Source: a virus
Taxonomy: Duplodnaviria > Heunggongvirae > Uroviricota > Caudoviricetes
Direction: 5' to 3' (one strand)
Length of the DNA stretch: 64,000 bases
Virus record (IMG/VR): IMGVR_UViG_3300014204_006419
Shown: piece after piece, positions 44,415-64,000 of the stretch
Layout of the letters: every line of letters begins with the position of its first letter
Position numbering within the stretch: position 1 is the first letter of the stretch
Program-made: the position numbers and the translations under genes
Notes under the pieces: generated by a model
Databases searched by the model: none
The model's input: only the letters and a program-made list of their open reading frames with translations
Told to the model about the DNA's origin: nothing

Positions 44415-44418
44415 TAGT

Positions 44419-44503: not shown

Positions 44504-44508
44504 TAAAT

Positions 44509-44590: not shown

Positions 44591-44597
44591 ATTGTAT

Positions 44598-44670: not shown

Positions 44671-44672
44671 TC

Positions 44673-44745: not shown

Positions 44746-44750
44746 TCAAG

Positions 44751-45900: not shown

Positions 45901-46592
45901 GCGATGAGATTAAGGCGATTACTGAATTAGAAGCGATACTCCCGCAGGAATTCAAGCAGAAGAAGAAACCGATTCCATATCCACTAGGTATGCGTGAGAC
46001 TCTTGCAAAAGCAGATGAACTCTCGCGTGAGGAATTCAAGATATTTTATTATCTCTCTTATCTGACTGGTGCCAGAGCTACTGAAGCACTTCGAACAAAG
46101 GGAAAAGATTTCAGTGTCAATGAACATGACAATGCGATGATTGTTCAGCTTCAGACCGAGAAGAATCGTCGTGAACCTCTTCGCAATATTCCAATTCCGC
46201 TTTATGGCACTGAAGAGACTGCAGCAAATAAAGTTCTTGATTATGTCCAATCAATCGGAGAGAATGAGCATTTGTTCAACTTCAATCGTATCACAGCATG
46301 GCGTGCTCTTGGTTCGATTCAGATAAATACTCGCGCAATATTCTTAGCCCCTGAGAAGAAAGTTGATGACTATTCTTTTCCGCTGTTTCCTCATTTTCTA
46401 CGCCATTCGCGTTTGACACATCTTGTAGTTGATTATGGTTATGATGCTTCTAGATTGAAAGCGTTTGCTGGATGGAGTTCGCTTTATCCTGCAACTTATT
46501 ATGTTCATCTCTCATGGAAGAACCTGCTTGCCCCAATTAGGTCGGCTTCTATGACACAACCAGTACAGAATTTTGTAAAACAGGAGGGATAA
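45897..46592 (+). CDS. tyrosine recombinase / integrase
   Basis: 231 aa. [10 protein letters not shown] (box I Arg), [12 protein letters not shown] (box II H-x-x-R...H), C-terminal ...YYVHL catalytic Tyr region. ATGA overlap with the gmd stop. Confidence 0.65.
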
Positions 46593-47027: not shown

Positions 47028-47312
47028 GTGGGTCAAGGGAATTTTTGGGGTGAAGAAATGAACTTTGTGATGCAGTTTTGGCTTGAACATCGCTTTACGA
47101 TTGCGATTGTGTTTGTCGCAATCTGTGCAATATTTATGGCGTGTACACTAATCTATGATTCAGTCCAATATACTAACGCCGTAAATCAGTGCAAAGCGAT
47201 GTACACAAATCAGCAACAAGAATTCTGTGATGCACACAATGGCACTATGTCAAATGGAGTATGCAGCGTACCATTCAATACAACTTTGGTATTCCCATCA
47301 TCCGTTCGATAG
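47028..47312 (+). CDS. small TM + Cys-rich protein (likely start at MNFVMQFW, 47048)
   Basis: 94 aa. TM helix, then a Cys-rich tail. Confidence 0.3.
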   Translation: MGQGNFWGEEMNFVMQFWLEHRFTIAIVFVAICAIFMACTLIYDSVQYTNAVNQCKAMYTNQQQEFCDAHNGTMSNGVCSVPFNTTLVFPSSVR

Positions 47313-47574
47313 TTTCTCTTGGTTTTCTTCCAGGTCTGCGGCTCTTTCTGTTTTTCTTTATTTCATCTGCGATTTCTTTAACAAGTTGCTTCTTTATCCT
47401 AGACATGTTTGGACTCTTTGCGATTAGATATGAAACGTCAGTCATATTGATTAGATTCATTTCTTTTGCATCTTCTTCGGTATCTCGGACTACCATTTCT
47501 GCTTCTTCCTTGATGTCATCAAGCATTCTAGAAAACTCTGCGGAAACCCTTTTTATTATGGATTCTTCATTCAT
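47275..47574 (-). CDS. hypothetical charged protein downstream of the giant gene
   Basis: 99 aa. ATGA overlap with the giant ORF's stop. Confidence 0.35.
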   Translation of the reverse strand: MNEESIIKRVSAEFSRMLDDIKEEAEMVVRDTEEDAKEMNLINMTDVSYLIAKSPNMSRIKKQLVKEIADEIKKNRKSRRPGRKPRETIERMMGIPKLY

Positions 47575-50500
47575 TTTCGTCCCTCGTTCAAAAGATAGTC
47601 GTCATTAACTTCTTTTCCGTTGGTAGAAAGTGCAATCATCGTCTTTGTTGACCTGCGTGTGAGCTTGTATCCGATGTAAATCACGATTAACAAGATGAAT
47701 ACTGCGAACACATAGATTCCAATGTCGATAAGTCCCGAAGTTGCGCTCGGCACTTTTGTAAATGTGTAATTTGTGAATGTTTGGTTACCTACTACTGTAG
47801 TTACCGATGAATTCATTACCATATCTCCTTGAGCTAAACTCATCCCAGCTATGCTCATTGCCAGGAATAGCCAGATTATTGCGAAGAAGAAACATGCATA
47901 CTGGATGAATGGATTAATTCTAAGTTTGAAGCCAGCTAGCGCGAATAATCCAGATGCAAATAGCAAAACTAGAACACCTATAATCGCCATAGGCGTTCCT
48001 GCGTTGTAAATTACTAGTCCTCCACCACTCGATGGTGTTGTTGGCTTTGTTGGGTCATAGGATAGGACGTACACTATATTGTTCGTGGAATTCAATAGTT
48101 GTTGGTTGTTGATTATTATCCTTCCTCCAACTTTCGTGTAATTTGGTACGATACTCCAGTCTACATAATTGTCTATGTCGCAGCTAGCATTATTGCAGTA
48201 GTAGAGCAATTCTGACTGACAATTTACGCAGGTATCATTTATGTTTCCAGTGAAGTTCTCTGTTATTCCATATGAATTGTTGAATTTTACTTCGTAGTTG
48301 AAAGGATATGGGAATACGTGTGGCATTGAATAGGTCACATTAGATGCAGTAACTGGAGTGGAGAACGATACATTGATTACAGAATCTCCATTCGCAGCAA
48401 TTGGGTGTAATCCTGAGCAGTTTGCAATACAAATTGCTCCTGGACTGCTCCAATTCAGATAGATTGCAGTGAAATTTATGGATGCATTATTTGTTATAAT
48501 TTCTGGGCTTATCCCGTAGTAGTTCACCGATAATTCGTTTAGGTTCGTATTAGGATTTTGCGCAGTCGTATCTGGGATAAATTCGCTTAATGAATCACCA
48601 GAACCATTTTCGCTTGCACTCTTTGTTTCGATTCCAGAAAAGTTGAATTCTCCACTTGCATTTGTGCAGATGAACTGTGTTGGGCAGGTACCAAAATCGG
48701 ATTCGTTGTAAGTGATATTGTTTAGTACAATTGCGTTATTCCATGTAGCATTCAGTTGAGAAATTATAAACTGAATTGTTAGGTCGGATTGACTTGCATT
48801 TGTAACTACGTCTTGAATCCATCCAGTTTTAACTACGTTCAATGCACTTGCGTTTATTCCTTCTAGCAAACTCTTTGTCTCTGCAGTACTGAAATCTACT
48901 GTTCCATTAAATAGGCAGGTGAATCCGTTCGGACAGGTATCGTAATCCGCTTGTGTATACGCTACGTTGCTGAGTGGAATATCGTTGCCCCAGGTTGCGT
49001 TTATTTGCTCTTGTAAGTATTGCTGCGTTAGTGTAGAAGTTATTGAATTGTTTTGCATCCAGCCAGTTCTGCTTACGCTTATGTTGTCTCCAGAGATTCC
49101 GCTGAAAATCTGGTTTGTTCCACTTTCATCCCAGCTAGTTGTTCTCGTCCATGAGCATACGAATCCATCTGGGCAAGTTGAGAAATCTGATTGAGTGTAC
49201 TGTACGGTTATTGGGAATGATTGACTCCAAGTTGCATTTATATTTTCTTTTAGATACTGAGTTGAGAAAGTACTTATTGCGCTAGTATTCTGAATCCATC
49301 CACCTTGTACTATGCTTATCGAATCTCCATTTGTGCCTTGTGTTTTTATGTCTGTTGAATTGAATTGTAGCAGTGCAGTGCTCTGATTGGTGAATGTACA
49401 AGCCCATCCGCTTATACATGCTGCGGTTGCACTTACGTTTGAATAGTTCAATGAGGATGGGTTTGTGAGTGCGCAGTTTCTTTCTGCATATTGCATTGAG
49501 AATGTGGAAGTTGCTGAATCATTTTGAATCCATCCGTTATTTGATGAACAATTGTAGGTTGGTGTACTCATATTGAAATTAATCGAATAGTTGTCATTAT
49601 TGCATGACCAGGCAACCCAGTCAGTTCCGTTTGATATTTCTTGCGCATTCGAAGTCGAATTTATTACTTCTAAGTCAATCCTATCTGTAGGTAGATAGGT
49701 GTAATTGCAGATTCCAGTTCCAGTTACGTTTGCTCTAATGCTGAATGATACGTTATAACCCACAGTAGCGTTTGTTTGTTGAATTATATTTCCATATTTC
49801 TCTTCTCTGAACATCATGTTCTGGTACTGCGTGGTTTCATTATTTCCTACATTATCATCTGAGAAATATCTTATGTATTGTAATCCATCTTTATCTATTT
49901 TGATTACTCCAGTGTAGTTAGTTGTTGGAGTGCAACTATTTGAAGTATCCAGACAATACTTGGTGATGTTGCATCCACTGCCAGAATCGGAGCAAGTTAA
50001 AGTGATGTTCACATATGGGCTGCTAGTCCAAGTTCCGAATGTGTACGATGCACTTGTATTTGTGATTGCAGTTGCGTTTGTTACGGGTGCTAATGATTCA
50101 TTCGCATATGCAACTGTGGAATTGTTTCCAAATGCATCGAAATTAAGCGTTCCAGAAGTATTGTAGCAAGTATATCCTACTGGGCAAGTGTCGAAATCAG
50201 ATGGATTAAACTGCACGGCGTTCATTGAGGTATTAACTCCCCAAGTTAGGTTCATTTGCTCGGTCTTATTCCCTAGACCAATCCAACCACTTAATGTCTT
50301 TGTGAGACTGTTTCCAGTTATTCCTTCTGTGAATGATTTTGACTCTTCTCCAGTGAAGTTTGTTGTTCTGGTGAAAGAGCAAATAAATCCAATTGGGCAG
50401 GTCGAGAAATCTGCTTGCGTATATTGAACGTTATCTAAAGCCCAGGTCAATTCCCAGGTTGCATTCGTTGTTTCTTGCAAGAATTGGTTGGTTACGTTGC

Positions 50501-53500
50501 TTGTAGCAGAGATATTCTGAATCCAAGTTCCTTTGGTTAGATTAATTGAATTTCCAGATGCTGATGCCCACGTTGAATTGCTTCCAAGTGAAGTGAAATT
50601 CATGGTTCCTGATGTATCTGTGCAACTCCATCCTGATGGGCAAGTGTCAAAATCTGATTGGGAATAGCTAATTTCAATTAATTGAATTGATATGTTGTTT
50701 GAGATATTCAATTGTTCCTTTCCGTATTGTATACTGAAGGTACTTGTCGGTGTTGCATTCTGCATCCATCCTGAAAGTGATTTTGTAAGTGCGTTTCCAC
50801 TTATCTGCACGATTGTTGAATTCGTTCCTGATGCAGATAGGTTCATGATTCCAGTCAAAGTTCCTGTGAATCCTATAGGTTCTGCTGGGAAATCATTACT
50901 TGAATACGAAACATTTGAGAATGGAATATTTGCTGCGTTACTGATTGATAGATTACTCATTAGATATTGGATACTTGTTGTTGAAGATGCTGATACATTC
51001 TGTGCCCAATCGGTTGCTCCACAAGTTAGAGCATTTCCAGAAACTCCTTCGGTTATATTGTTATCCCCATTGCTGATTGTTGCAGTGTGTGAGAAAGTGC
51101 CTGAGAATCCTATTGGTTGAGTTGCAAAATCGGTTTGTGTGTAGCTAACTCCTGTCAATATTATCGCATTGCCCCATGCCACTGTATCATTAGCATATAT
51201 TGATTGGATTGAACAATTCGTTGTAGCACTAGTATTCTGTGTCCATGCTCCTTTGGTTACAGTGATATTGTTTCCACTGATTCCCTTTGTAATATTGTTT
51301 GTTCCTGAATCAGTCCATGAAGTATTTTCTGTCCATGAGCACACAAATCCATTAGGACATGTATCAAAATCACTTTCTGTGTATTGCACGTTCATTGGGA
51401 AATTGTTACCCCAAGTCGCGTTTATTGTGTCCTGCAAGTATTGCATCGAGAATGTGGAAGTTGCTGAATCATTTTGAATCCATCCGTTCTTTACTATTGA
51501 GATGTTGTTTCCACTGAGTGCCCAGTTGCTTGAATTGCTGCCCAATGCTGAAATGTTCAAACTTCCACTGTGTGTTCCAGAGAATCCGTTTGGTAAAGCA
51601 TTGTAATCGGTTTCTGAGTAAGCGATGTTCTGCCAGGTAAAGTTTGAAGTATCTATTATGCTAAGAGTGCTGTTTATGTACTGAGTCGTGAATGTTGAAG
51701 TCTGTGAATTGTCTTGCGCCCAGTCTGCTGCAGAGCAGGTTAATCCACTTCCGCTTGTTGTCTTGTTTATACTCGTTGTTGTTGATGGTGAAAGTAGCAG
51801 TATTCCGCCTTCTGGCTTTGCGAATCCAGTTGGAGCAGTTGGAAAATCTGATTGGTAGTATGTTAGGTTAAGTGATGTTGTTCCGCCCCAAGCAACGCTC
51901 AGTGTATCGTAGAGATACTGTGTCGTGCAATTGCTTGTTTGATTGATGTCTTGATAGTAATTGCTGAATGTGCAAGTTGCATTGCTTCCAGATGCATATT
52001 CTTGGAGTTGGATTGTTCCATTTTCTGCGAAGGATAGATTCCCGCTTATGCTTGCGGATATTCCATCGGGTAGTGCATTAAAGTCAGTTCCAGAATAATT
52101 TACGTTGATTGGAATTGTTCCGTTATAGGTTACGTTGTTCGTTGCGAATAAATATTGTGATGTACAGTTGCTTGTGTTTGTATTATCCTGAATCCAATCT
52201 CCTTTAACATTGACTATACTTGAACTATTTGCTCCAGCAGTAGTTGAATTGCTGCTTGTTGCTTGTATATCCAAGGTTCCAGAGGTTCCTGTTGTTGTCC
52301 ATCCTGCGGGTGTAGCTGCAAAATCATCTGCTACAAACGAAAATCCTGTCAGCGGGAATGCGTTGCCCCACGTGAAGTTACTTGTAGCTTGTGCATACTG
52401 AATACTGAAGTTACTAATCGCGCTGACATTTTGTATCCATGCACCTTTTGTTACGGTTATATTATTTCCAGATGCTCCTCTTGTGCTTGTGTTAGTACCA
52501 AGAGGTGTGAAATTGAATGTTCCAGACCAGAAGCAAATGAATCCGTTAGGGCACGTATCATAATTATCTTGTGTGTATTCTACGTTACTTAGAGAGAATG
52601 ACTGATTCCAACTTGCATTTAATTGCTCTTGTCCATATTGGATTGAAGATGTGCTAGTCGCGCTTGTATTCTGCATCCATCCACTCTTGGATAGTGTTAT
52701 ACTGTTTCCAGATGCTCCCGCTGTTGTAGAATTTGAATTGCTTGCTGCGATATTAATAGTTCCTGTCTCTCCTGTTGCTACCCATCCAAAAGGAGTAGTT
52801 GTGAAATCCCCTTCTGCATATTCAAATCCAGTAAGTGGGAAGTTATTACCCCAAACGAAAGTGCTAGTTGATTGTCCGTATTGTGTTGATAACGTAGATG
52901 TTGCGGATGCATTCTGTTGCCAAGCGTCCTTGGTTACGGTAATGTTATTACCCGAACTTCCTCTTGTACTAGTATTTGTTCCTAACCCAGTAAAGTTGAA
53001 TGTATCCGACCATGAACAGGTGAATCCGTTCGGACAGGTATCGTAATCTGCTTGCGAATATGCTACGTTGCTAAGCGTAAAGGATTGATTCCATGAAGCG
53101 TTAAGCTGCTCCTGCGCGTATTGTATGCTAGATGTAGAAGTTGCTGAGATGTTCTGTATCCAACCACTTAACGTCTTTGTGATTGAACTTCCATTTGCGC
53201 TTGAAGTTGTGGAATTATTTCCGTTAGCTTGAATGTTCAACGTTCCCGAAGTTTCTGAACAAGTCCATGAATCAGGACAAGTGCTGAAATCTTCGCTATT
53301 GAATGATACTCCAGTTAGATTTATCGAATTGCCCCAGTAGAAGGTAGATGTTGCCTGTGCATATTGCATTGCTAGTGTGCTGGTCGCGTTCGTATTTTGG
53401 ATGTAACTATCTTTGCTGACTGTTATGTTATTTCCGCTTATTTCCTTCCAAGTCTGTGTGGTTTCTCCTGCACTTATGTTTGTTGTATCTGTCCATGAAC

Positions 53501-56500
53501 ATACGAATCCGTTTGGACAGGTATCGTAATCTGCTTGTGTATATTGGACTCCCGTAAGATTGAATCCTAGATTATTTGTTGCGTTAACGTTCTCCATTAA
53601 GTACTGAATTGTCGAATTGCTGGTATGATTATTGTCTTGAACCCAACCACTTTTTACTACGGTTACGTTATTTCCATTTCCTGTTGCATTTGTGTTGTTG
53701 CTGCCACCTGCTGGAACTAGTAAACTTCCTGATTCTCCAGAACATGTAAATCCAATTGGGCACGAATCAAAATCTCCGCTACTGTATGGGATAGTCCATG
53801 AATCACCCGATGAATTTAGAGTTAGTGTCTCTTTTCCATATTGTGTGGTAAACGTAGACGTATATGCATTGTCTTGAACCCAACCGCTTAACGTCTTTGA
53901 AATTACACTTCCGCTAATCTGTTTCGTGATATTTGTTGTTTGACTTGCATTTAAGTCGATTGTCCCATTAACGTTTCCTGTGAATCCTGCTGGCTTTGAT
54001 TGGAAATCGTTATCTCCAAATGTAATTGATACTAAGTCTATTGTTCCAGTGTTGTTTATCACTAGTGTACTGTTGTAATATTGAGTTGCTATAGTGCTTG
54101 ATTCTTGAGTCCATGGCGAGGCACTGCAAGTTAATTCATTTCCCTGCACGTTTTCATTTAACTGCGCCGTAGCTCCCGCACTTATGTTTATTGTTCCAGA
54201 CCAGGTGCTGCTAAAGTTGCTTGGTAATGTATCCCAATCTGATTGAGTGTAGTTAACTTCGGTTAATCCGAAGGATAGATTAGAAGTTGCGTTGAGATAT
54301 TCTTGTATTGTTTGTTGTGTGCAATTTGTAGTAGCTGATACATTCTGTGCCCATCCGCTCTTTGTTATTGTTAGACCGTTTCCTTCACCAGTTGCGGTGG
54401 TTGAGTTGCTTCCCAGTGCAGAAAAGTTTAATGTACCAGACATCCCTGAGCAAGACCAGCCACTAACGCATGCGACGAAATCTGAACTCTGGAAATTAAT
54501 GTTTGATAGAACTATTGAAGTATTACTTGTTGCACTTAGATTCTGTGCTGCATATTGTGTACTCAATGTAGAAGTATTGGTTAAATCTTGTAGCCAGTTA
54601 GTGTTTGATTCGGTTAACCAGTCTCCGCTTCCTGTTCCTTGTGTACTATTGGAGCCTGAAGCTTCAAAATCTAACGTTCCATTAGTTCCTGTGCAGATTG
54701 CTCCAGTAGGGCATACTGCGAAATTAGTACTGTTAAAGGTTATCCCTGTGAAAGCGATTGCTAGTTGGTTTGTAGCACTCAAAGTACTGTTGAGATATTG
54801 TGTTTGCATATTGCTAGTTTCCGATGCATTTTGTTGCCAAGCAGTATTTGATTCTGTGAGATTATCTCCATTCGCTCCCTGTGTAATATTATTCGTTGCT
54901 CCTGCATCTAGCGGAGTTATTGATTGTGTTGTTACATTGCATGTTTCTCCTGCTAGACAATCTAATATTGCTGAAGCATTAGTGTAATTCGTAGTCGTAC
55001 TTGGATTAGTCAATGTGCAGTTCCTTTTTTCGTATTGCATCTCTAATGTTGAGGTATATCCGTTGTCTTGAATCCAAGAAGTACAAGAACTTTCTACCGC
55101 AGGTAAAGTGATATACGCTTCATACGAACTATCTGTGCTGTTACAAGTCCACGCGAGCCAATTTGTTCCGTTACTGCTGGTTATATTGTCTCCTGAACTG
55201 TTTTGAACATAAGTAATAATGTAATCTATTGGAATTGTGAGGTTACAGGTTCCTGAACCTGTTACATTTACTTGTGCTCCAAATAATACATTTGTCCCTG
55301 CTGTTGCGTTGATTAATTGTGATAATTCTCCATATGTTGGAGTGAAACTACTTGTTGTTGTATAATTGAATGGAAGGTCACAGGAGGTTGAGTTCCAATT
55401 ATTATCCGTGTCATTTGCGTAGACGCACCATCTGATTGTACTTCCTGCAGTTGAATTCACAGTCTTTGTTACGTTAGACCAATTGCTTGTGCCCGTCATT
55501 TCTACTGCTGAATCATTGATTAGTTCTCCAGTACCATTATCGAATGAGAATATGTAACTGGATAGTCCTGAAGAGTCTAGCCATTCTAGACTGAAGAGTG
55601 TGTCCACTCCAGCAAGTGTATCATTTGTACTATTATTTGTGTATGTAGGTGGGATTATATCTGGGTTTCTTATTGTGAATACTTCGCTGTATCCAATTGA
55701 GTGCTGACCTATGACGTCGAATGCTTCAACGGAAACTTCATATTGACCTTCTGCTAATCCAAGAGTGTCCCATCCATAAGAAGTCGAAGGTTCGGACTCG
55801 ACAATGGTGCTGATAAACGTTCCATTTACGTCTGTCAATGAAATGTTATAGTAAGATATTGCATACTCATTTGGCGAGATTGAAGGCAACCAGGTTATTG
55901 AAACTAGATTTCCTGAAGTATATGTTGTATTCTCTGGACTTACTACAAATGGCGCAGTAGGCGGAAGTCCTCCGAGTTCCATTAAGTCCTCTCTCACGCT
56001 TGAGCAAACTTCTGTCCCATTGGTGTAATTTGCACAGACATAGTAATAGAAACTTGCATTTCCTAGGAATTGGTGAAGATGTGAATCTACTGTATATGTT
56101 TGGTCAGTCCATGAGTTTCCATTGTTTTCTGTTGTCGCAGTTGTTCCAACTCTAATCTCTTCTGCAACATGCCAAATACTCCAGTCTTTAGCCCCACCAA
56201 ATGCGAAGTAAGAATCTGGTGTTACTTTCAATCCATTTATTGTTCCGTCTGTAGTGTTGAACGTAAATGGTAGCCAGTTGTGGCATGATGCGTTTAGGTG
56301 GCAGTGTGAATAATTCGTTGTTGGTGCGAGTGTTCCAATCAGGGTGCAATTTGATAGGCTGCTTGTGAATTTATCTCCTCCTATATATGAACCGTTGCAG
56401 TAGAAAAGATTTGCTGGTGCGGCATTTGCTGTAGAATTTGCCATTATCTCAAAAATTCCCCAGTTCTTTACGTCACTCACGTTGAGAATCTGCATTTTGA

Positions 56501-58886
56501 TGTAGTCGTTCTTGTTGTTTGTAGTGTACGCTGTGTGTGCCATGTTATCTGCGGATACTGCTCCGACCATGAAAGTTCCTGGATAAATCTCATTGTCAAG
56601 AAGTCTGAAACTGTAATTAGTTCCTGATGAGGCATTAACCGTTTCAGGGAAATATCCTGCATGTGCGGTTCCGTTTAGGTAGTATTGAATATTGTCTATT
56701 GAATCATTTGATTTATAGTAAATCCTAATTGTGGATGTATTGATGTTGTCTCCAGTAATCGAGTAGTTTATGAACATTGGATTTCCCTGAACGTTAGTGA
56801 TGTTCAAGTCTGCAGGTGTTTGTGATTGGAAAGTAATGCTTATTGGATTAACCCAATCCCAGCTTCCATCAGATTTCTTGAGTTTGTAATTAAATCCGTT
56901 AGAATCTCCCGCATAAACGTCGTCGATTCCAACTTGTATTGAGTCTATTGCCTTGAAATATACTTGAACACACCATGCAGTTGTTCCGTTATATAACGTC
57001 TTACATACTACTCCTGCTGCGTGTCCTGTATAAATTGCGCCTTCGGTATCATCAATTCTAAGTGCATAGATTTGTCCTGTTCCGTTTGGCTGCACCAGAG
57101 TTTGACCTGTTCCCCAGCTTACTGCTGCGTTTGAGATTGCCACCTTTGAGATATTTCCGTTCTGGTGCCCAGCATAAATGTAGCCATTTGCTTCGTCTAA
57201 TGCCAAACATCCTGGGTTAATTGCGCTTGCATACGGTTGAACTTTTGTAGCAGTAGTCCCCCAGACTATTGTTCCATTTGGATAAGTCTTTGAGAGGTTT
57301 CCTCCGCTTGTTCCTGTGTAAATGAAAGAACCACAAGCAATCGAATTTCCTTGTGCTGTTGTTGGTCTTGTTGTTGCGTTCCAAACTTTAGTTCCAGAAG
57401 TTGTGTACTTGTTCAAATATCCTGTTCCAACCACAGCGTAAACATTGTCTCTCGCGGGGTCTATACATATGTCGTAAGGTATGTTTGAGCCTAAACTCGA
57501 AGTCCAATTCTGCGTTCCATCTAAGTTTAATGCGGTTATGCGGTCTGTTGCTCCATTTCCTATTGCAACAAAAAGTCTAATATAATCTCCAATAATTGCA
57601 CGAGTTGTTACTAATGCTGGTCTTACTTGTCGAGTCCAATTTGCGGTTCCATTTCCGCTGCTTACACTTGAAATATATCCACTCTCCATTGCGTTATAAA
57701 GCCAACCATTAGTAGTATCGAGCCAACTTCCGTAAATCCAATTTGCGTGTGCTTGCGGGTTTGGATTCCAAAGAAATACAGTTCCACCGTCCTCTTTAGT
57801 CGTTCCTGCTGGCTGATTTATTCCTGTGTCGCTTGATAGATTATTCAGATTAATATAACCATTTGCTCCACCGCTCCAACACAAAGGTGTTGAATTTGAG
57901 CACCAACCCGTGTTTTCTGCCGCAGTTTGTGTCTGTGCTGAAAGATTCCATAGTGCAGTTCCATTGCTTTTGTAGATTTTATTTCTTTGTCCTTGTCCGA
58001 GTTGGGTAGTGAAAAGATATGTGTCGTTGTGAGCATCAACTTCTGAAACGTAGTTGGTTGTGTCCTGCATTTCAATTAGCCAAATGTTTGCACCTGTTGT
58101 GAGGTTTCCTTTTGCTACCCAGCCATATCTGTAACCTACATAATACGCATCGTCTGCTTCGTTAATGTGATTATTTCCTGCGGTTACGTTATTCCCTGTA
58201 ATTACCGACCACCTTTGCGAACCGTCTGCTTTTGCGAAACTCGTTACATTTCCATTATTTCCAGTTAAAACGCAATAACCTGTTGCATTTGTATCGCAGT
58301 CGAGTCCATAAGCGTATGTTGCACCACTTGGTTGAATTAGAGATTGCCCTGCTCCCCAGACCCATGTTCCGTCAGTTATATTTATTTTGCTCACGTTACC
58401 TGTTGCATGACCTACATACAAAAATCCGTCATTTCCCAAGTCCATTGAATATGGATTGCAGTTTGCTCCAGTGTAAGGAGTTACGCAAGTATCATTCCAA
58501 CCGTTGCCTGTCATTGAACCGTTCGTAAATGAAACTTTACAGATTGAGCAGCCACCACCCTGATAGCCAACGTAAATCCATGTTTTTGCGTCATCAACTG
58601 CCAAAATGTTTGCCGCCTTGTTTAATGGGTCAATCGCAAGGCAAGCTGATGCCCATCCGTTGTCTGTTGTGCTTCCGTTGTAAGCATTGAATTTGCATAG
58701 GTTGTTTGCCGATGCAGCTTCAATACAATATGAACTTGAATTCATTGGTTCCTCGCACCAAATCCTATTTACAGCTTGCGCTACTGGGCGAACGATTTGA
58801 GGGGAGTTCCAAGTCCCATCAGCAAAAATCATCTCGGATAGGAAAATTAAGCAAAATAACGCTAGATAGATTCGTTTTAAATCCAT
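47571..58886 (-). CDS. giant cell-surface protein (3771 aa): signal peptide, beta-propeller-like N-terminal region, about 25 tandem ~95-aa repeats, C-terminal TM anchor, extremely sequon-rich
   Basis: Single uninterrupted ORF. N-terminus MDLKRIYLALFCLIFLSEMIFADG. Repeated YVGY/YAGH propeller-blade-like motifs. The repeat unit is SGWIQN-SATSTFS-QY...NATWGN-FPL...YTQ-DFDTCPNGF-CSW. Two C-terminal TM helices. Confidence 0.8.
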   Translation of the reverse strand: MDLKRIYLALFCLIFLSEMIFADGTWNSPQIVRPVAQAVNRIWCEEPMNSSSYCIEAASANNLCKFNAYNGSTTDNGWASACLAIDPLNKAANILAVDDAKTWIYVGYQGGGCSICKVSFTNGSMTGNGWNDTCVTPYTGANCNPYSMDLGNDGFLYVGHATGNVSKINITDGTWVWGAGQSLIQPSGATYAYGLDCDTNATGYCVLTGNNGNVTSFAKADGSQRWSVITGNNVTAGNNHINEADDAYYVGYRYGWVAKGNLTTGANIWLIEMQDTTNYVSEVDAHNDTYLFTTQLGQGQRNKIYKSNGTALWNLSAQTQTAAENTGWCSNSTPLCWSGGANGYINLNNLSSDTGINQPAGTTKEDGGTVFLWNPNPQAHANWIYGSWLDTTNGWLYNAMESGYISSVSSGNGTANWTRQVRPALVTTRAIIGDYIRLFVAIGNGATDRITALNLDGTQNWTSSLGSNIPYDICIDPARDNVYAVVGTGYLNKYTTSGTKVWNATTRPTTAQGNSIACGSFIYTGTSGGNLSKTYPNGTIVWGTTATKVQPYASAINPGCLALDEANGYIYAGHQNGNISKVAISNAAVSWGTGQTLVQPNGTGQIYALRIDDTEGAIYTGHAAGVVCKTLYNGTTAWCVQVYFKAIDSIQVGIDDVYAGDSNGFNYKLKKSDGSWDWVNPISITFQSQTPADLNITNVQGNPMFINYSITGDNINTSTIRIYYKSNDSIDNIQYYLNGTAHAGYFPETVNASSGTNYSFRLLDNEIYPGTFMVGAVSADNMAHTAYTTNNKNDYIKMQILNVSDVKNWGIFEIMANSTANAAPANLFYCNGSYIGGDKFTSSLSNCTLIGTLAPTTNYSHCHLNASCHNWLPFTFNTTDGTINGLKVTPDSYFAFGGAKDWSIWHVAEEIRVGTTATTENNGNSWTDQTYTVDSHLHQFLGNASFYYYVCANYTNGTEVCSSVREDLMELGGLPPTAPFVVSPENTTYTSGNLVSITWLPSISPNEYAISYYNISLTDVNGTFISTIVESEPSTSYGWDTLGLAEGQYEVSVEAFDVIGQHSIGYSEVFTIRNPDIIPPTYTNNSTNDTLAGVDTLFSLEWLDSSGLSSYIFSFDNGTGELINDSAVEMTGTSNWSNVTKTVNSTAGSTIRWCVYANDTDNNWNSTSCDLPFNYTTTSSFTPTYGELSQLINATAGTNVLFGAQVNVTGSGTCNLTIPIDYIITYVQNSSGDNITSSNGTNWLAWTCNSTDSSYEAYITLPAVESSCTSWIQDNGYTSTLEMQYEKRNCTLTNPSTTTNYTNASAILDCLAGETCNVTTQSITPLDAGATNNITQGANGDNLTESNTAWQQNASETSNMQTQYLNSTLSATNQLAIAFTGITFNSTNFAVCPTGAICTGTNGTLDFEASGSNSTQGTGSGDWLTESNTNWLQDLTNTSTLSTQYAAQNLSATSNTSIVLSNINFQSSDFVACVSGWSCSGMSGTLNFSALGSNSTTATGEGNGLTITKSGWAQNVSATTNCTQQTIQEYLNATSNLSFGLTEVNYTQSDWDTLPSNFSSTWSGTINISAGATAQLNENVQGNELTCSASPWTQESSTIATQYYNSTLVINNTGTIDLVSITFGDNDFQSKPAGFTGNVNGTIDLNASQTTNITKQISGSVISKTLSGWVQDNAYTSTFTTQYGKETLTLNSSGDSWTIPYSSGDFDSCPIGFTCSGESGSLLVPAGGSNNTNATGNGNNVTVVKSGWVQDNNHTSNSTIQYLMENVNATNNLGFNLTGVQYTQADYDTCPNGFVCSWTDTTNISAGETTQTWKEISGNNITVSKDSYIQNTNATSTLAMQYAQATSTFYWGNSINLTGVSFNSEDFSTCPDSWTCSETSGTLNIQANGNNSTTSSANGSSITKTLSGWIQNISATSTSSIQYAQEQLNASWNQSFTLSNVAYSQADYDTCPNGFTCSWSDTFNFTGLGTNTSTRGSSGNNITVTKDAWQQNASATSTLSTQYGQSTSTFVWGNNFPLTGFEYAEGDFTTTPFGWVATGETGTINIAASNSNSTTAGASGNSITLSKSGWMQNTSATSTSSIQYGQEQLNASWNQSFSLSNVEYTQDNYDTCPNGFICFWSGTFNFTPLGTNTSTRGASGNNITVTKGAWIQNVSAISNFSIQYAQATSNFTWGNAFPLTGFSFVADDFAATPAGWTTTGTSGTLDIQATSSNSTTAGANSSSIVNVKGDWIQDNTNTSNCTSQYLFATNNVTYNGTIPINVNYSGTDFNALPDGISASISGNLSFAENGTIQLQEYASGSNATCTFSNYYQDINQTSNCTTQYLYDTLSVAWGGTTSLNLTYYQSDFPTAPTGFAKPEGGILLLSPSTTTSINKTTSGSGLTCSAADWAQDNSQTSTFTTQYINSTLSIIDTSNFTWQNIAYSETDYNALPNGFSGTHSGSLNISALGSNSSNWALSGNNISIVKNGWIQNDSATSTFSMQYLQDTINATWGNNFPMNVQYTESDFDTCPNGFVCSWTENTSWTDSGTNNITKGISGNNITVTKGAWTQNTSATTNCSIQSIYANDTVAWGNAIILTGVSYTQTDFATQPIGFSGTFSHTATISNGDNNITEGVSGNALTCGATDWAQNVSASSTTSIQYLMSNLSISNAANIPFSNVSYSSNDFPAEPIGFTGTLTGIMNLSASGTNSTIVQISGNALTKSLSGWMQNATPTSTFSIQYGKEQLNISNNISIQLIEISYSQSDFDTCPSGWSCTDTSGTMNFTSLGSNSTWASASGNSINLTKGTWIQNISATSNVTNQFLQETTNATWELTWALDNVQYTQADFSTCPIGFICSFTRTTNFTGEESKSFTEGITGNSLTKTLSGWIGLGNKTEQMNLTWGVNTSMNAVQFNPSDFDTCPVGYTCYNTSGTLNFDAFGNNSTVAYANESLAPVTNATAITNTSASYTFGTWTSSPYVNITLTCSDSGSGCNITKYCLDTSNSCTPTTNYTGVIKIDKDGLQYIRYFSDDNVGNNETTQYQNMMFREEKYGNIIQQTNATVGYNVSFSIRANVTGTGICNYTYLPTDRIDLEVINSTSNAQEISNGTDWVAWSCNNDNYSINFNMSTPTYNCSSNNGWIQNDSATSTFSMQYAERNCALTNPSSLNYSNVSATAACISGWACTFTNQSTALLQFNSTDIKTQGTNGDSISIVQGGWIQNTSAISTFSTQYLKENINATWSQSFPITVQYTQSDFSTCPDGFVCSWTRTTSWDESGTNQIFSGISGDNISVSRTGWMQNNSITSTLTQQYLQEQINATWGNDIPLSNVAYTQADYDTCPNGFTCLFNGTVDFSTAETKSLLEGINASALNVVKTGWIQDVVTNASQSDLTIQFIISQLNATWNNAIVLNNITYNESDFGTCPTQFICTNASGEFNFSGIETKSASENGSGDSLSEFIPDTTAQNPNTNLNELSVNYYGISPEIITNNASINFTAIYLNWSSPGAICIANCSGLHPIAANGDSVINVSFSTPVTASNVTYSMPHVFPYPFNYEVKFNNSYGITENFTGNINDTCVNCQSELLYYCNNASCDIDNYVDWSIVPNYTKVGGRIIINNQQLLNSTNNIVYVLSYDPTKPTTPSSGGGLVIYNAGTPMAIIGVLVLLFASGLFALAGFKLRINPFIQYACFFFAIIWLFLAMSIAGMSLAQGDMVMNSSVTTVVGNQTFTNYTFTKVPSATSGLIDIGIYVFAVFILLIVIYIGYKLTRRSTKTMIALSTNGKEVNDDYLLNEGRK
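48800..54900 (-). repeat. tandem in-frame coding repeats (~285 nt / ~95 aa unit, about 25 copies) inside the giant surface-protein gene
   Basis: Recurrent peptide motifs (SGW[IMA]QN.SATST.S.QY, DFDTCPNGF.CSW) and matching DNA periodicity across this span. Boundaries are approximate. Confidence 0.6.
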
Positions 58887-58889
58887 AAT

Positions 58890-59321
58890 TTATCTTCCAT
58901 AGTCGTTATTGAAATAATCGTTGTCTGGTTTGTGTTTTCCTTTGAGTGAATCTAATAATGTCCTTGAAGTTGTGAAGAACAATTTGTATCCGATATACAT
59001 TACCATTAGCATGATGAACAATCCAAATACGTAGATTCCAATATCAAGCAATCCAGAGGTTGCGCTCGAAGAATTTCCGTATGTAACCAATGTCTGTGTG
59101 GAATTAGTAGATAGAATTGTTGTGGTTGTTGAGTTTAGAACTGGGTCTCCTTGCGTCAATCCCATTCCAGCTAGTGTCATTGCCAGGAATAGCCAGATTA
59201 TTGCGAAGAAGAAACATGCGTACTGAATGAACGGTGTGATTCTTAGCTTGAACCCAGCTAGCGCGAATAAGCCAGAACAGAATAAAAGTACTAGAATTCC
59301 CGCAAGAATTAAATCCACCAA
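58890..59321 (-). CDS. stand-alone membrane-anchor module, paralog of the giant protein's C-terminal ~140 aa
   Basis: 143 aa. LFALAGFKLRI[TN]PFIQYACFFFAIIWLFLAM...SATSGL[LI]DIGIYVF...YIGYKL is nearly identical to the C-terminus of 47571..58886. DNA at about 59160..59300 is ~85-90% identical to about 47830..47975. Confidence 0.6.
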   Translation of the reverse strand: MVDLILAGILVLLFCSGLFALAGFKLRITPFIQYACFFFAIIWLFLAMTLAGMGLTQGDPVLNSTTTTILSTNSTQTLVTYGNSSSATSGLLDIGIYVFGLFIMLMVMYIGYKLFFTTSRTLLDSLKGKHKPDNDYFNNDYGR

Positions 59322-59448
59322 TACACCTTATGACGGCTTTTGGCTTTCTTTATTTAAAAACGTTGTGGTTTGAGAAAAAGAAATATTAGGTGGTTCATCC
59401 CGCATCACGCAGTCCCCACTTTTTCAATGGCGAGCCTCAATTCAGTAA

Positions 59449-59751
59449 CTAGTACTGAACAGACTCTACGCCAAACTGACCCGCTCCGCGCTGTCCGAAC
59501 ATGCCTGTTACAAGTCCGACCATGATTGCGCCGACAAAGACCACTACGATGATTTGTAGCCACTGTGGTACTGTCGCAAGTGCAGTAATAACCTGTCCGA
59601 TAGCAGTGTATGCAGTGCTGTTGTTTCCGCCACCAGTCATGTTATTGACTACGCTCTGTGTCTGAGCAAGCGTCAAGAATGCAACTGCGATAACAATTGC
59701 AAACACAAGCAAGCCCATTGCGAGATTGGTTAATTGGTCAAGTGCTCCCAT
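59449..59751 (-). CDS. small membrane protein (2 TM, central sequon-rich loop)
   Basis: 100 aa. Confidence 0.35.
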   Translation of the reverse strand: MGALDQLTNLAMGLLVFAIVIAVAFLTLAQTQSVVNNMTGGGNNSTAYTAIGQVITALATVPQWLQIIVVVFVGAIMVGLVTGMFGQRGAGQFGVESVQY

Positions 59752-59887
59752 TGAAAATTCACCCCTTTTACGACGATTGGGTACGTGCGATAAACCTTAC
59801 GGTATCTCCTTTGTTTATAATAATTATATAAAGGCTTGTTAACACGGTACCAACACGTATACTTTTGTATCCAAGCTTTGTATTCGT

Positions 59888-60277
59888 TCAATTTGTATTC
59901 TTGAACGTCAGATACATGAATCCAATTAGGAACATGGCAAGAAGAATCGTTAGGAACCAGCCTGCCAGTAATCCGACCCACCATAGAATAAGTCCGACGA
60001 TAAATGCAACGAATGCAGCATATGTGAAAGAGATACTTTTTGGATAATTGCTTAGAATAATGAATATAATCGTGCCTATTGTAAGGGTTAATGCAACGCC
60101 CCAAACACCGCCAGTAATCGTATTGACAAATCCCATCATTGTTTCGAAAGAATTTATTTGCGTGATGTTTGTGATGTTTGCGAGATTCAGAACCATGAGT
60201 ACACCTACATACGGTACTTGAAGTACATGCTGACTACTTCTAGCAAGATTATTATTGAAATTGCTGCTCCGATACAC
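59888..60277 (-). CDS. polytopic small membrane protein
   Basis: 129 aa. 3-4 TM. The start may be internal. Confidence 0.3.
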   Translation of the reverse strand: MYRSSNFNNNLARSSQHVLQVPYVGVLMVLNLANITNITQINSFETMMGFVNTITGGVWGVALTLTIGTIIFIILSNYPKSISFTYAAFVAFIVGLILWWVGLLAGWFLTILLAMFLIGFMYLTFKNTN

Positions 60278-60699
60278 GCCATTATGATTAGTATCAAGGA
60301 TTGCGCGGATGTATTTGAATTAGACGTGGATGAATTTGAATTAGGGGTCATTGCACCTAACCCAAATATTAACACGTTTCCAGTTTGACTTAACATTGTT
60401 GCGGTTATTGTTACAGATTGAGTAGCTATCTTTGCCATGTACCATGGGTTAGTCAATGATGCTCCAGATTGGTCTGTTGTCGCCGTAGCGGGTTGATTGA
60501 TTACGTTCTGCATTCCCTGCGTCATATTTACATATTGGTCAGAATAACCACTGTAATCAAAATTATTTGTAACGCTCTGAATCCCAGGTGCCCCAGCACC
60601 AAGATATGCAGCTCCACTTTCTGAGATTAGCATGGTTACGGCTGCTGCTATGATTATCATGCAAATTCCTGAAATTATCATTCCTCTAGTCTCTGCCAT
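60205..60699 (-). CDS. pilin-like protein candidate (possible class III signal peptide)
   Basis: 164 aa. N-terminal MAETRG followed by a long hydrophobic segment. S/T/N-rich middle with sequons. C-terminal hydrophobic helix. Confidence 0.3.
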   Translation of the reverse strand: MAETRGMIISGICMIIIAAAVTMLISESGAAYLGAGAPGIQSVTNNFDYSGYSDQYVNMTQGMQNVINQPATATTDQSGASLTNPWYMAKIATQSVTITATMLSQTGNVLIFGLGAMTPNSNSSTSNSNTSAQSLILIIMACIGAAISIIILLEVVSMYFKYRM

Positions 60700-60700
60700 T

Positions 60701-63700
60701 TTACGTCCTCGCTTTCATTGCGAATAGAATTGCGACTACTATCAATGCGATGCACGCGCCAAGGCTCAACTGTGTGAATCCCATTACCGCCATCAAGATA
60801 AGTCCTACAACCCCTAGGAACATTGAGACTATCGGGTTGTATAATCCTATGCCTACGAGAGTCAAGAATACGATTAACGTCGGGAAAATTCCCATATCCG
60901 CGAACTGCTTCTGCGCAGTGTAATCTAGAGAAGATAACATTAGGCTTCTGTTGTTGTCAGTGTAGTTTGAATCATATGAATAGACTGACACGGTGTACAT
61001 TTTTCCTGTGAATCCATTTATGTCGCATACTAAGGTTCCACTTGCTCCAGTCACTGCATCAGTGCAGGCTCTCCCCAGGGTTGCATTTGATGAAAAGCTG
61101 AGTTCATTTATTGTCAAATTGTAGGTTCTTGCTCCTGCATTGGCATCTACGAATTGACAGGTTACTTCTTGTGTTGTACTATTTATTGAAACGTTTAGGC
61201 ATCCTATTGCAATTGAACCCATTGTACTCCAGTATGAGGTAGATGTTGGAGATAATCTTAGCACTACTTGGCAGGTCGAAGTTGCACATGAGATAATCTG
61301 CTGAGTGAATGTCTGCAGAACTACTCCATTTTTTGATACTACATAATTATACCAGATGTCATTTGGTCTAAGATATGTGCTTGCTACTCCATTCGAATCC
61401 GTCTGGATGATTCCGATTGTTTGGTATGAAGCGTTACCAGTAAAGTATCTTTGTATAGTTATGTATGCGCTGGTTACTGGATTATTATCTGCGTCGAGCA
61501 GTAGGAATTGAGTCTGTCTTGCGTATTCTGGGGATTCGCAGAACAGTGTGTAGTATGCAGTAGTATTTGTTGGATTCAGAGACATGTTCTGGATGAAATA
61601 ACTTCTCATCGGATATTTTACTGTTGTATTTGACCAGAGATATGTATATCCGTAGAATGTGAAGGTTTCGTTTGTTGAAGCATTGTATTGGCTAGTTGTG
61701 TTGCTCATTATTGTTCCTGCAATTGCACTTGCATTCACCTGGCAGGCGTATTGGTTGTTGATTGTCACGTTTGCTGGAAGACTGTTTGGATTTATGCAGA
61801 TGATTGCCGAAGTTGCATTTTCTATTATTGCACCTGCAGTGTAATTTCCACTTGATGCGGTCAAATACACTGAGATGAACTGCGTTGCGTAATTCAAACT
61901 TTGATTCTCTTCGTCCCTTGTTGTGAAATTGAATTTTGTATAATTTATTCCTGCTCCGCTGTAGTTTACACAATCTCCGTTGTAAGCAAATGTTGGAGCA
62001 TTGTAATCCGCGTAGTACAATGTATCTGGACTGCAAGCAAATGTCCAGGTCAATCCAGTTCCACTTCCCGAATTATTATACAATGTTGTGTTCAGTTGAG
62101 TTCCATTTGTGTAATAAATTGTTGGCTGGCTTGATGCAGACAGTGTGCAATATGTTGCATTCTGTGTTGAAAGCGCAGTCTGCCTTAGTATTCCACCTGT
62201 TGAATTTATCCCATTGGCAACCAAGTCGATGTTGTTTCCAATCGCATATCTCCAGGTGTAATTTATTTTTGTACTGTTTGTTGGTGCAAGCTGCGATATG
62301 GTATATCGAGTAGTGGAGTTATAATTGAAGTAATGCGAATCATCTCCAAGTCTAACTCCTATTCCATTACCTATTGATGCATTATTTTGTACTTTGATTA
62401 AGTTCGTTATGTTTGAATCTACGAATGAATTCCATCCCCATGTTGTTCCTATAGCTGCACTCCCAAATGAAGTCGATACTGTTGGGTTCAGATTCCAGGT
62501 TAAATTACTTGCATTCCAATTGCTTGTCGTGTAATATGCGCTCAATGTTTGACTTGCATTTGAAATACTGTACGCACTTATATTGATACTCGAAAGTATG
62601 AGTCCTTGTCCAAGATAGTACTTTGAGAATACAAATTCTTTCTGGCTTGTCGCTACTGAGGGGTCATTTGTATTCAATCCTTCGAAATTTATGGTTGCGT
62701 TTCCTGCGTTTGTGAAAGTATCCTCACTCGAATTAACTAGTGAAGTCTGATTTATCGTGTACCAATCGCATACTCCAGAACAATTACTCCAATAGTTGTA
62801 TCCGCCATCAGTGAGATTTGTTGAACTGTTCAGGTCGTTTGTATTGTTGTATAGATTTAGGTTTAGTACTGTTGTGGCTAGATTTGTTGCAGTGAAAACA
62901 TTTATTCCATAGGTATTGTTCGCAATCGAATTTGATTTGAGTGTGTTGTTTCCAGTAGTATTTATCCCGATTCCGTTTGTCGAATTTCTGATTACACTCC
63001 ATTTAATCATGTTATTGTTTGAGGTTCCATTAAGCAGAATACCATACTTGCTTTGTCCAACTGTGAAATTCGAAATTGTATTTCCATCACCATTGATTAC
63101 GATTGCATTTGCTCCATCAGATTTTACGTTTAACCAGCTACCAGTTACCGAATTGTTGTATCCGTTTATGACTAAACAATCTGCTCCCGCACCATCAATG
63201 CTTGTGTACAATTTGTAAGTTGTATTGTTACCATTGTATGTTCCGCATTCGATGATTGCTCCTGCTGGAGTTCCTCCGTACCAGGCAAATTGTGTAAATG
63301 TTGTGCTACTAGATGAATTCAATGCTGTTTGACTCTTTGATATAGGCAAACATCCATAACCGATTGGGCATCCGAATGACTCCGTTGCATTCGAATAATT
63401 TGTGGTAGTGCTTGGATTTGCATATACACAACTTCTGTTCCAATAACTTGTTTGGTCTATAAATCCTGCTGAGCCACTGCAGTTGTTTGATATTTGTGGA
63501 AGATTCCAGAATATGGAATAGTTTCCAGAAGTTGCATTGCACAAGAATGATACCCAGGTAGTTCCGTTGCTTGCTATTGTGATGTTCGCTCCAGTTCCAT
63601 TCTGTACCCATAAGTTTCCTGAAGGCATAAGCCTATCGGATTGCATTGCTGTGAAATTGCATGTTCCATTTCCTATTGGATTTGCGGCAGCTGTGAAAAT

Positions 63701-64000
63701 TACTGGAGTTGTATCACTAGCGTTATTATATTGAGATACACTTCCATAGGACAATGCGGAAAGTAGAACACTCACGTTCTTAGTTGTTTCGTTGTTGCTT
63801 ACATTGTCCATTGAATAGTATCTGAAGTAATTTGTTCCGCTTAAACTGATTTGCACTGGTGTTGTGTAGGTAGTTGATGGTGTGCAAGTATTCGTGGTGT
63901 CATTGCAGTATTTGGTGATATTGCAGCCGCTTCCATTTCCATCAGAACACGATAAGGTAACATTTACATAAGTGCTATTCGTCCAAGTATTGAAAGTGTA
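60701..64000 (-). CDS. large surface protein with parallel beta-helix-like repeats and C-terminal TM anchor (5'-truncated by window end)
   Basis: At least 1100 aa. The frame stays open upstream of the GTG at 63856 to the window edge. NG-rich repeats (ANAIVINGDGNTISNF.., NGTSNNNMIKWS.., GIGINTTGNNTL..) suggest a PbH1/beta-helix. C-terminal multi-TM anchor. The N-terminal region is homologous to giant-protein residues ~2950-3030. Confidence 0.6.
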   Translation of the reverse strand, partial: YTFNTWTNSTYVNVTLSCSDGNGSGCNITKYCNDTTNTCTPSTTYTTPVQISLSGTNYFRYYSMDNVSNNETTKNVSVLLSALSYGSVSQYNNASDTTPVIFTAAANPIGNGTCNFTAMQSDRLMPSGNLWVQNGTGANITIASNGTTWVSFLCNATSGNYSIFWNLPQISNNCSGSAGFIDQTSYWNRSCVYANPSTTTNYSNATESFGCPIGYGCLPISKSQTALNSSSSTTFTQFAWYGGTPAGAIIECGTYNGNNTTYKLYTSIDGAGADCLVINGYNNSVTGSWLNVKSDGANAIVINGDGNTISNFTVGQSKYGILLNGTSNNNMIKWSVIRNSTNGIGINTTGNNTLKSNSIANNTYGINVFTATNLATTVLNLNLYNNTNDLNSSTNLTDGGYNYWSNCSGVCDWYTINQTSLVNSSEDTFTNAGNATINFEGLNTNDPSVATSQKEFVFSKYYLGQGLILSSINISAYSISNASQTLSAYYTTSNWNASNLTWNLNPTVSTSFGSAAIGTTWGWNSFVDSNITNLIKVQNNASIGNGIGVRLGDDSHYFNYNSTTRYTISQLAPTNSTKINYTWRYAIGNNIDLVANGINSTGGILRQTALSTQNATYCTLSASSQPTIYYTNGTQLNTTLYNNSGSGTGLTWTFACSPDTLYYADYNAPTFAYNGDCVNYSGAGINYTKFNFTTRDEENQSLNYATQFISVYLTASSGNYTAGAIIENATSAIICINPNSLPANVTINNQYACQVNASAIAGTIMSNTTSQYNASTNETFTFYGYTYLWSNTTVKYPMRSYFIQNMSLNPTNTTAYYTLFCESPEYARQTQFLLLDADNNPVTSAYITIQRYFTGNASYQTIGIIQTDSNGVASTYLRPNDIWYNYVVSKNGVVLQTFTQQIISCATSTCQVVLRLSPTSTSYWSTMGSIAIGCLNVSINSTTQEVTCQFVDANAGARTYNLTINELSFSSNATLGRACTDAVTGASGTLVCDINGFTGKMYTVSVYSYDSNYTDNNRSLMLSSLDYTAQKQFADMGIFPTLIVFLTLVGIGLYNPIVSMFLGVVGLILMAVMGFTQLSLGACIALIVVAILFAMKART

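Follow-up and report, generated by a model that had tools for sequence, protein, structure and literature searches.

In archaeal surface layers (S-layers) of the SlaA/SlaB kind, the large protein SlaA lacks its own membrane anchor, and its partner SlaB, which has one C-terminal transmembrane (TM) helix and a stalk, is not paralogous to any part of SlaA. Short C-terminal isoforms that arise from nested or internal starts and co-assemble with the full-length protein are known from phage lambda C/Nu3, ClpB, and CheA-L/S; in these, assembly proceeds through the common module, and the short form tunes the stoichiometry. In Neisseria pilE/pilS, Borrelia vlsE/vls, and Mycoplasma surface genes, several cassettes are usually present, which lack promoters and comprise the exposed, variable part of the protein. 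The SlaA/SlaB pair of the Sulfolobales forms a two-component archaeal S-layer (PMC10903991). Here, we analyzed a locus in a 64,000-nucleotide (nt) stretch of IMG/VR virus record IMGVR_UViG_3300014204_006419 (the window, to which all positions refer unless stated otherwise), which is part of ENA contig ERZ27247350 k141_2421657 (114,686 bp, of which ~88 kb was read). Directly upstream of a gene for a giant glycoprotein of 3771 amino acids (aa), a small gene encodes a 142-aa protein that consists almost wholly of three TM helices and a 38-residue loop and is paralogous to the giant's own C-terminal membrane anchor. Our leading, though still tentative, explanation is that an old partial duplication has been kept as a co-transcribed and probably translationally coupled gene for an anchor-only subunit.

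The open reading frame (ORF) of the small gene ends in a TAA stop codon (58892..58890 (-)), and a longer N terminus of the protein is ruled out because a further TAA is present in frame at 59330..59328. Of the two possible start codons, GTG 59318, which is preceded by a Shine-Dalgarno-like motif, is more probable than TTG 59321 (-), which would extend the protein to 143 aa. Many other genes in the window are preceded by GGTG(A) at like spacing. Two further elements upstream of the start, a T-rich tract and a TATA-box-like sequence, could represent the archaeal oligo-T terminator of the upstream unit and the TATA box of the small gene, respectively. Besides the three hydrophobic helices recognized by hydropathy, the protein exhibits a predicted cytoplasmic turn (K-L-R-I) right after TM1. 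An AlphaFold model of low confidence (pLDDT [predicted local distance difference test] 61.5) placed helices at residues 2-26, 30-56, and 87-127, with a small hairpin between. According to the positive-inside rule, the short N terminus would be located outside, with TM1 running inward to the K/R turn on the inside and TM2 running outward; the sequon-bearing Ser/Thr loop would then be exposed on the outside, and TM3 would run inward to a tail on the inside.

Comparison by blastp of the small protein with residues 3633-3768 of the giant revealed 81 identities among 137 positions (59%) with one gap (E 3e-50), well above chance level. This bears out an earlier note on this DNA, made from the letters and a list of ORFs, in its claim that the small ORF matches the last ~140 residues of the giant. 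The description of the two copies as near-identical holds for the TM1-TM2 core, but not for the module as a whole, which is 63% identical in DNA and 59% in amino acids; blastn gave 73% DNA identity over 297 nt (E 4e-45). For 59160-59300, where 85 to 90% DNA identity had been estimated, we measured 82% against 47838-47978 (141 nt), with one exact run of 43 nt. Instead of the two TM helices counted previously, hydropathy gave three hydrophobic helices per copy. The Ser/Thr-rich loop attributed to both copies was indeed found in each of them; it is 51% identical in amino acid sequence, and three N-X-S/T sequons are kept in either copy. The sequence YIGYKL, by contrast, is not the shared ending it had been taken for: it closes TM3 and is followed in each copy by a diverged tail of ~29 residues. 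These tails are just 14% identical in amino acid sequence, with their stop codons at homologous positions.

Within the helices, all substitutions were conservative (I/V/L/M, G/A, T/S, and C/A), and the juxtamembrane motifs QGD and SATSGLxDIGIYVF were near-identical in both copies. The sole indel between the copies was 3 nt in length. No significant similarity was detected upstream of TM1 or past the stop codons, and the duplicated unit extends exactly from TM1 to the homologous stop codon. The run of 13 identical codons within TM2 exceeds the length predicted by permutation (P about 0.008); gene conversion over a short tract or nucleotide-level constraint may account for it. Together, the copies form a direct repeat with a register offset of 11,322 bp, in agreement with the distance of about 11 kb given before. 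No third copy of the anchor was found, either by tblastn across the window or by a profile search of the ~88 kb of the parent contig.

Selection on the module was assessed by Nei-Gojobori counts on the codon alignment of the two copies. Synonymous divergence (dS) was 1.25 overall, i.e., near saturation. Omega was 0.30 overall, 0.13 in TM2, 0.08 in TM3, and 0.59 in the tail; values in the helices ranged from 0.08 to 0.2. Had one copy drifted freely, a pairwise omega of ~0.5 or more would be expected. Degenerate codons specifying the same residue in both copies differed synonymously in 34 of 78 cases, and thus the identity of the copies is held at the protein level. When neutral drift of the giant's module to the observed divergence was simulated, the frame remained open in 0.9% of cases with all change assigned to one copy and in 6% with half of the change on one copy. 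Since the stop of the small ORF aligns with that of the giant, this stop was included in the duplication and did not arise by recent nonsense mutation of a longer gene. Judged from these sequence counts, the duplication is old and its helices are under purifying selection. We are therefore dealing, with high probability, with a real and selected gene; a decaying remnant is unlikely.

The 3771-aa protein contains 221 N-X-S/T sequons, ~25 tandem units of ~80 aa, and one OmpL47-type domain. Its signal peptide, MDLKRIYLALFCLIFLSEMIFA, is canonical and is present only when the gene is read from ATG 58886. In public data, the giant is called as a gene of 3724 aa (P0002) that begins 47 codons later, at an internal ATG behind a GAGGA motif, and thereby loses the signal peptide (58745..58886); therefore, ATG 58886 is most likely the true start. 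The giant's own three hydrophobic helices span residues 3633-3736, as judged by hydropathy. By the positive-inside rule, its ectodomain would be located outside, followed by an anchor laid out as in the small protein and a tail on the inside.

As stated in the earlier note, only 3 nt separate the small ORF from the start of the giant, and the junction reads TAA-ATT-ATG. The GGTG Shine-Dalgarno motif is absent ahead of ATG 58886. Because of this absence, and because the small gene stops 3 nt upstream, translation of the giant is likely coupled to that of the small gene: as in coupled pairs, the stop lies within a few nucleotides of the next start, and the downstream gene lacks a strong ribosome-binding site. 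Neither the junction of stop and start nor the leader showed significant RNA structure. At its other end, the giant gene overlaps the gene of a 99-aa protein (ATGA), and the operon therefore continues past the giant.

Upstream of the small gene, three genes for small membrane proteins follow a second giant glycoprotein gene (Table 1). The 2618-aa product of the latter has 168 sequons, seven OmpL47-type 'YTFGTWTNSSYVNVTLSC' domains, and a multi-helix C-terminal anchor. It has ectodomain modules in common with the 3771-aa protein (37-59% aa identity), but the C-terminal anchors of the two are unrelated. Paralogy between the anchor of the 2618-aa protein and the three small membrane ORFs was not found.

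Table 1. Positions of the small anchor-only gene, its parts and signals, the paralogous module, and neighboring genes
Feature	Position (strand)	Residues	Remarks
Small anchor-only gene	58890..59318 (-)		142 aa from GTG 59318; sequence read directly, database call P0001
TM1 of small protein	59250..59312 (-)	3-23	LILAGILVLLFCSGLFALAGF; hydropathy; low-confidence AlphaFold helix 2-26
TM2 of small protein	59157..59234 (-)	29-54	Best-conserved part, 87% aa identity
Ser/Thr-rich extracellular loop of small protein (predicted)	59043..59156 (-)	55-92	Sequons N62, N72, N82
TM3 of small protein	58980..59042 (-)	93-113	IGIYVFGLFIMLMVMYIGYKL; YIGYKL at its end
Cytoplasmic tail of small protein (predicted)	58893..58979 (-)	114-142	Contains LFFTTSRTLLDSLK and HKPDNDYFNNDYGR
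Shine-Dalgarno-like AAGGTG	59324..59329 (-)		GGTG 5 nt ahead of GTG 59318
TATA-box-like TTTTTAAATA	59351..59360 (-)		33-42 nt before GTG start; putative promoter
T-rich tract TTTCTTTTTCT	59373..59383 (-)		In 130-nt spacer after preceding gene
43-nt exact tract	59177..59219 = 47855..47897 (-)		13 consecutive identical degenerate codons, within TM2
Giant glycoprotein gene	47571..58886 (-)		3771 aa; ends in paralogous anchor module
C-terminal anchor module of giant	47574..47990 (-)	3633-3771	Paralog of small gene
99-aa charged protein	47275..47574 (-)		Downstream of giant; its ATG overlaps giant's TGA (ATGA)
100-aa two-TM membrane protein	59449..59751 (-)		Last gene of upstream unit
102-aa membrane protein	59888..60196 (-)		
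164-aa membrane protein	60205..60699 (-)		TM helices at N and C terminus, Ser/Thr-rich middle
Second giant glycoprotein gene, 3' part	60701..64000 (-), on to L001 762..8618		2618 aa in full contig

The locus was also present in a second assembly. A 2000-bp contig from IMG metagenome 3300035208 (JGI landfill) matches 60834..58835 of the window at 100% and spans the small ORF, the junction, and 55 nt at the start of the giant gene; the protein database contains an identical 142-aa protein from JGI/IMG (P0125). The sample of this metagenome originated from a landfill in Southern Ontario, leachate well LW1 (bioRxiv 10.1101/2024.05.30.596742).

A HMMER profile search of 1.84 billion representative proteins retrieved only the two copies and one repetitive eukaryote-like artefact, and a word-indexed search of 5.8 billion proteins retrieved only the query's own cluster. 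Pattern scans for the module were negative in GTDB genomes and IMG/VR, as was a scan of JGI metagenomes, which was incomplete and missed the JGI contig carrying the gene. No family match for the module was obtained in Pfam-A, NCBIfam, PHROGs, or PADLOC, and none among PDB sequences at E<=1. A query with the last 500 aa of the giant retrieved no relatives, and its last 1000 aa were absent from phage records; the AdoMet synthetase of the element was in neither GTDB nor phage records. Relatives of the giant's OmpL47-type module ('YTFGTWTNSSYVNVTLSC...') were found in 44 loci of JGI metagenomes, with identities reaching 60%; several of these relatives belong to proteins of 1000-4200 aa ending in a TM helix and a basic tail. 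Among these 44 loci, neither the three-helix module nor a neighboring paralog of the C terminus was detected. So far, the arrangement is unique to one landfill-leachate population.

In the explanation we tentatively favor, the small gene would have originated by an old partial duplication of the 3' end of the giant gene or, equivalently, from a copy of the giant gene in tandem whose ectodomain was lost. Duplication could also have run the other way, from an ancestral small gene whose duplicate became fused to the giant. A remnant of recombination between surface-protein genes, as suggested earlier, is plausible as far as the origin is concerned, with two paralogous giants having modules in common; with its constrained helices and a sole indel of 3 nt, however, the copy is not decaying. 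The small ORF would form the first cistron of a unit in which the anchor-only gene is followed by the 3771-aa gene and then by the 99-aa gene. Ribosomes ending on the small gene would probably go on to translate the giant, which would tie the output of both proteins. In the membrane, the free module may use the shared helices to pack with the anchor of the giant or with a partner common to both. Packing via the helices is the most likely mode, because both copies kept their intramembrane helices while loop and tail drifted. The product might serve as a subunit made of the anchor alone, with a stoichiometric role in a mixed oligomeric base in the membrane where not every position bears the huge ectodomain. 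Among the possibilities raised in the earlier note, a separately expressed partner appears to fit the data best, with the qualification that the giant keeps a full anchor and is not simply the secreted ectodomain assumed there.

Several observations weigh against this explanation. The signal of selection comes from a single pairwise comparison with dS near saturation, and hydrophobic helices constrain composition, which can lower apparent omega. Beyond the two copies, no homologs were present in the 1.84 billion representatives and the other collections, and since the 44 related loci lack an anchor paralog, such a layout is no general design. A hairpin that includes the AUG of the giant was not significant (z -0.99), and a weak internal promoter might produce a leaderless giant mRNA. 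In addition, the AlphaFold model of the module is of low confidence (pLDDT 61.5).

A small membrane glycoprotein that acquired an independent role after the duplication, for instance as a further envelope or surface component akin to the three small membrane proteins encoded upstream, and that is merely placed in the same operon with no remaining tie to the giant's anchor, is unlikely, but deserves the most attention among the other explanations. It would agree with the strong divergence of loop and tail (51% and 14% identity) and with the occurrence of three other small, unrelated membrane proteins in the locus (164, 102, and 100 aa), and purifying selection fits any membrane function. However, the near-identity of TM2 (13 identical codons running) and of QGD and SATSGLxDIGIYVF exceeds the needs of generic hydrophobicity, and the 3-nt stop-start junction ties the synthesis of the small protein to the giant. 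The small ORF could also be the non-functional leftover of a truncated giant-gene copy, open by chance or as a translated leader that brings ribosomes to the start of the giant and whose amino acid sequence is irrelevant, which we consider rather improbable. Omega values of 0.08-0.2 in the helices are far from the ~0.5 or more expected under free drift, the only indel is in frame, and the neutral simulations keep the frame open in no more than 0.9-6%; the GGTG motif is properly spaced, and the loop sequons are kept. Such a leftover would nevertheless be in line with the tandem paralogous giant genes, which make duplication and deletion likely, with a giant start that lacks a strong Shine-Dalgarno sequence and lies 3 nt past the small ORF's stop, and with the lack of homologs to show conservation. 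That the copies are an artefact of assembly duplication has next to no probability: the sequence is a metagenomic contig, and nothing more speaks in favor, whereas 37% of nucleotides and 41% of residues are different between the copies, and the JGI 3300035208 contig from another assembly is 100% identical over 60834..58835. The earlier note had named such an artefact as its own possible refutation; this refutation fails, with copies too diverged for it and a second contig identical across the small ORF and the junction.

There is only a slim chance that the repeats, 11.3 kb apart, constitute a recombination device, either as a switch for in-frame deletion of the ectodomain or with the small copy as a donor cassette for anchor replacement. 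They are direct and in register, so that after a crossover an unbroken chimeric anchor gene would remain, together with the operon downstream of it; the 43-nt exact tract (13 identical codons, P about 0.008) hints at past exchange, and a tyrosine recombinase gene is located ~1 kb beyond the giant gene. Deletion of the giant gene across the repeat, as envisaged in the earlier note, is physically possible and in frame. With 63-82% identity outside the 43-nt tract, however, the repeats are a poor substrate; neither a chimeric nor a deleted variant was found in the protein collections, the second assembly is identical over 2 kb, and the integrase adjoins the tRNA array, as in ordinary integrative elements. 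The notion of a donor cassette or of phase variation finds no support in a single copy that has its own Shine-Dalgarno sequence, start, and promoter-like box and whose similarity peaks in the membrane-embedded part, the opposite of known cassette systems. A scarless excision switch that doubles as a spare part, with the copies still exchanging sequence and the 43-nt/13-codon tract as a footprint, is comparably improbable; if it existed, a crossover at any point of the shared helices would take out the 11.3-kb ectodomain in frame, and a population of the element could discard or vary its giant surface protein while avoiding polar effects. Finally, small ORF and giant might be one gene whose TAA is read through, yielding a protein anchored at both ends. 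The two are in frame with just TAA-ATT between them, the fusion would be topologically consistent, and ARAGORN by default called a tRNA-Stop(tta) at 44418..44504 (+) (see below). Yet TAA ends 25 of 64 genes, no in-frame stop of any kind is present in either giant gene, in-frame neighbors are no commoner for TAA than for TGA, the small ORF's stop is homologous to the giant's own, and a shared frame has a one-in-three chance, which leaves read-through very improbable.

By its gene content, the element appears to be an archaeal virus- or plasmid-like element. Archaeal markers comprised an AglB/STT3-like oligosaccharyltransferase (weak matches below Pfam curated cut-offs), an archaeal-type AdoMet synthetase, an intron-containing tRNA, ribosome-binding sites of the GGTG type, and TATA-like boxes. 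A mobile element or virus was suggested by the near-complete confinement of the genes to one strand, an array of six tRNA genes, a tyrosine recombinase and a transposase, MazG, a T4-type RNA ligase, LPD29, Ro60/TROVE, HD and RyR domains, many ORFans, and a leader element of ~65 nt that recurs ahead of four or more genes. Genes for capsid, portal, terminase, or ribosomal proteins were not seen in the ~88 kb read. The AglB/STT3-like gene is located at 15423..17933 (-), and further glycosylation genes were found at ~6.4-15 kb and 23.8-24.8 kb; the set includes several glycosyltransferases, a nucleotidyl transferase, sugar-nucleotide enzymes, and two radical SAM enzymes. This looks like the element's own N-glycosylation toolkit to go with the giant glycoproteins, and it fits giant proteins with a sequon beginning at ~6% of their residues.

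The only plus-strand island of the window (44255..46592 (+)) is situated ~1 kb beyond the giant operon and has a higher GC content (0.45). It holds the tRNA array (44255..44745) and genes for a GDP-mannose 4,6-dehydratase and a 231-aa tyrosine recombinase, and looks like an insertion or attachment region. Within the array, the tRNA at 44418..44504 was rejected as a suppressor tRNA: the form called by default has a mismatched anticodon stem, while removal of a 12-nt intron generates a perfect 5-bp stem and a sense anticodon. This intron-bearing tRNA is Tyr(GTA) according to ARAGORN -i, or Asn(GTT) with the intron at the canonical position 37/38 and a bulge-helix-bulge-like fold. It is unusual for such a tRNA to occur in an array of six on an archaeal element of virus- or plasmid-like character. 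A Ro60/TROVE-vWA protein (L049 6895..8457, beyond the window's low end) and a T4 Rnl1-type RNA ligase (27102..28226 (-)) are also encoded; together with the tRNA array, they hint at an RNA repair or quality-control module.

Elsewhere in the window, a promoter-plus-leader element of ~65 nt (-) occurs upstream of the starts at 1649, 6370, 23210, and 37117 and, in weaker form, at 10733. It has the structure ACCTTTATATA-TAGTAGGTTCATAAG-AATACATTACGA(G/A)GGATG....TCGTAGGGGTTGATTTAA, and its hairpin stem varies between copies in a compensatory-looking manner. A core 24-mer is present at 1666..1689, 6413..6436, and 23252..23275; no such copies are expected by chance. The element was found neither in IMG/VR nor before the anchor gene. 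A region of ~1.9 kb (36817..38709), which sits between membrane-protein genes and the AdoMet synthetase gene, contains no ORF of at least 100 aa, but only short ones on either strand; its GC skew is close to zero, and it may represent a regulatory or origin region.

If the small protein co-assembles with the giant, this would provide a natural way to space an ectodomain of ~3600 residues with 221 potential N-glycosylation sites in the membrane, and archaeal surfaces, where a large canopy protein is combined with a small membrane partner, would gain a new form of this theme. Apart from its function, the small gene offers a clean example of a partial gene duplication that has long been kept as a gene. 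The reach of these conclusions is that of an orphan module from one landfill-leachate population, with a functional part that we infer.

Compared with described systems, the locus shares with SlaA/SlaB that a very large glycosylated surface protein is encoded beside a small membrane partner and that the two are presumably made together. Unlike SlaA, the giant has its own full three-helix anchor, of which the small protein is a copy; and unlike SlaB, the 142-aa protein has three TM helices and a 38-residue loop, not a single TM helix with stalk and beta-sandwich domains. No sequence relation to SlaA/SlaB was found (no Pfam, NCBIfam, PHROG, or PDB matches). Other giant surface proteins of archaea, which combine OmpL47-type or Ig-like repeats with a TM anchor at the C terminus and are frequent in archaeal contigs from metagenomes, have the ectodomain module 'YTFGTWTNSSYVNVTLSC...' in common with the giant described here. 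In the 44 OmpL47-type JGI loci, where C termini were readable, they showed an apparent single TM helix and no three-helix module. Class I holins have three TM helices, an N-out/C-in orientation, and a charged tail; the small protein resembles them in size class, three TM helices, predicted N-out/C-in orientation, and hydrophilic tail, which is a generic feature. Its sequon-bearing loop of 38 residues is atypical of holins, no lysis enzyme is encoded nearby (the neighboring genes specify giant glycoproteins and small membrane proteins devoid of enzyme domains), no PHROG match was obtained, and its only homolog is a structural anchor.

As in the silent-cassette systems, a partial copy of a surface gene lies near the expressed gene, and the direct repeats could recombine. 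Unlike silent cassettes, however, the copy is single and equipped with start signals and a stop, and the membrane-embedded part is the most conserved. Like the lambda C/Nu3-type isoforms, the locus encodes both a full-length protein and a version restricted to the C-terminal module. While those isoforms are read from the same DNA and are identical in sequence, the short version here is a separate, diverged paralog located upstream, whose co-assembly with the giant we infer. The pair is a member of no known family; by analogy, it would work most like a two-component surface layer or a short-isoform partner.

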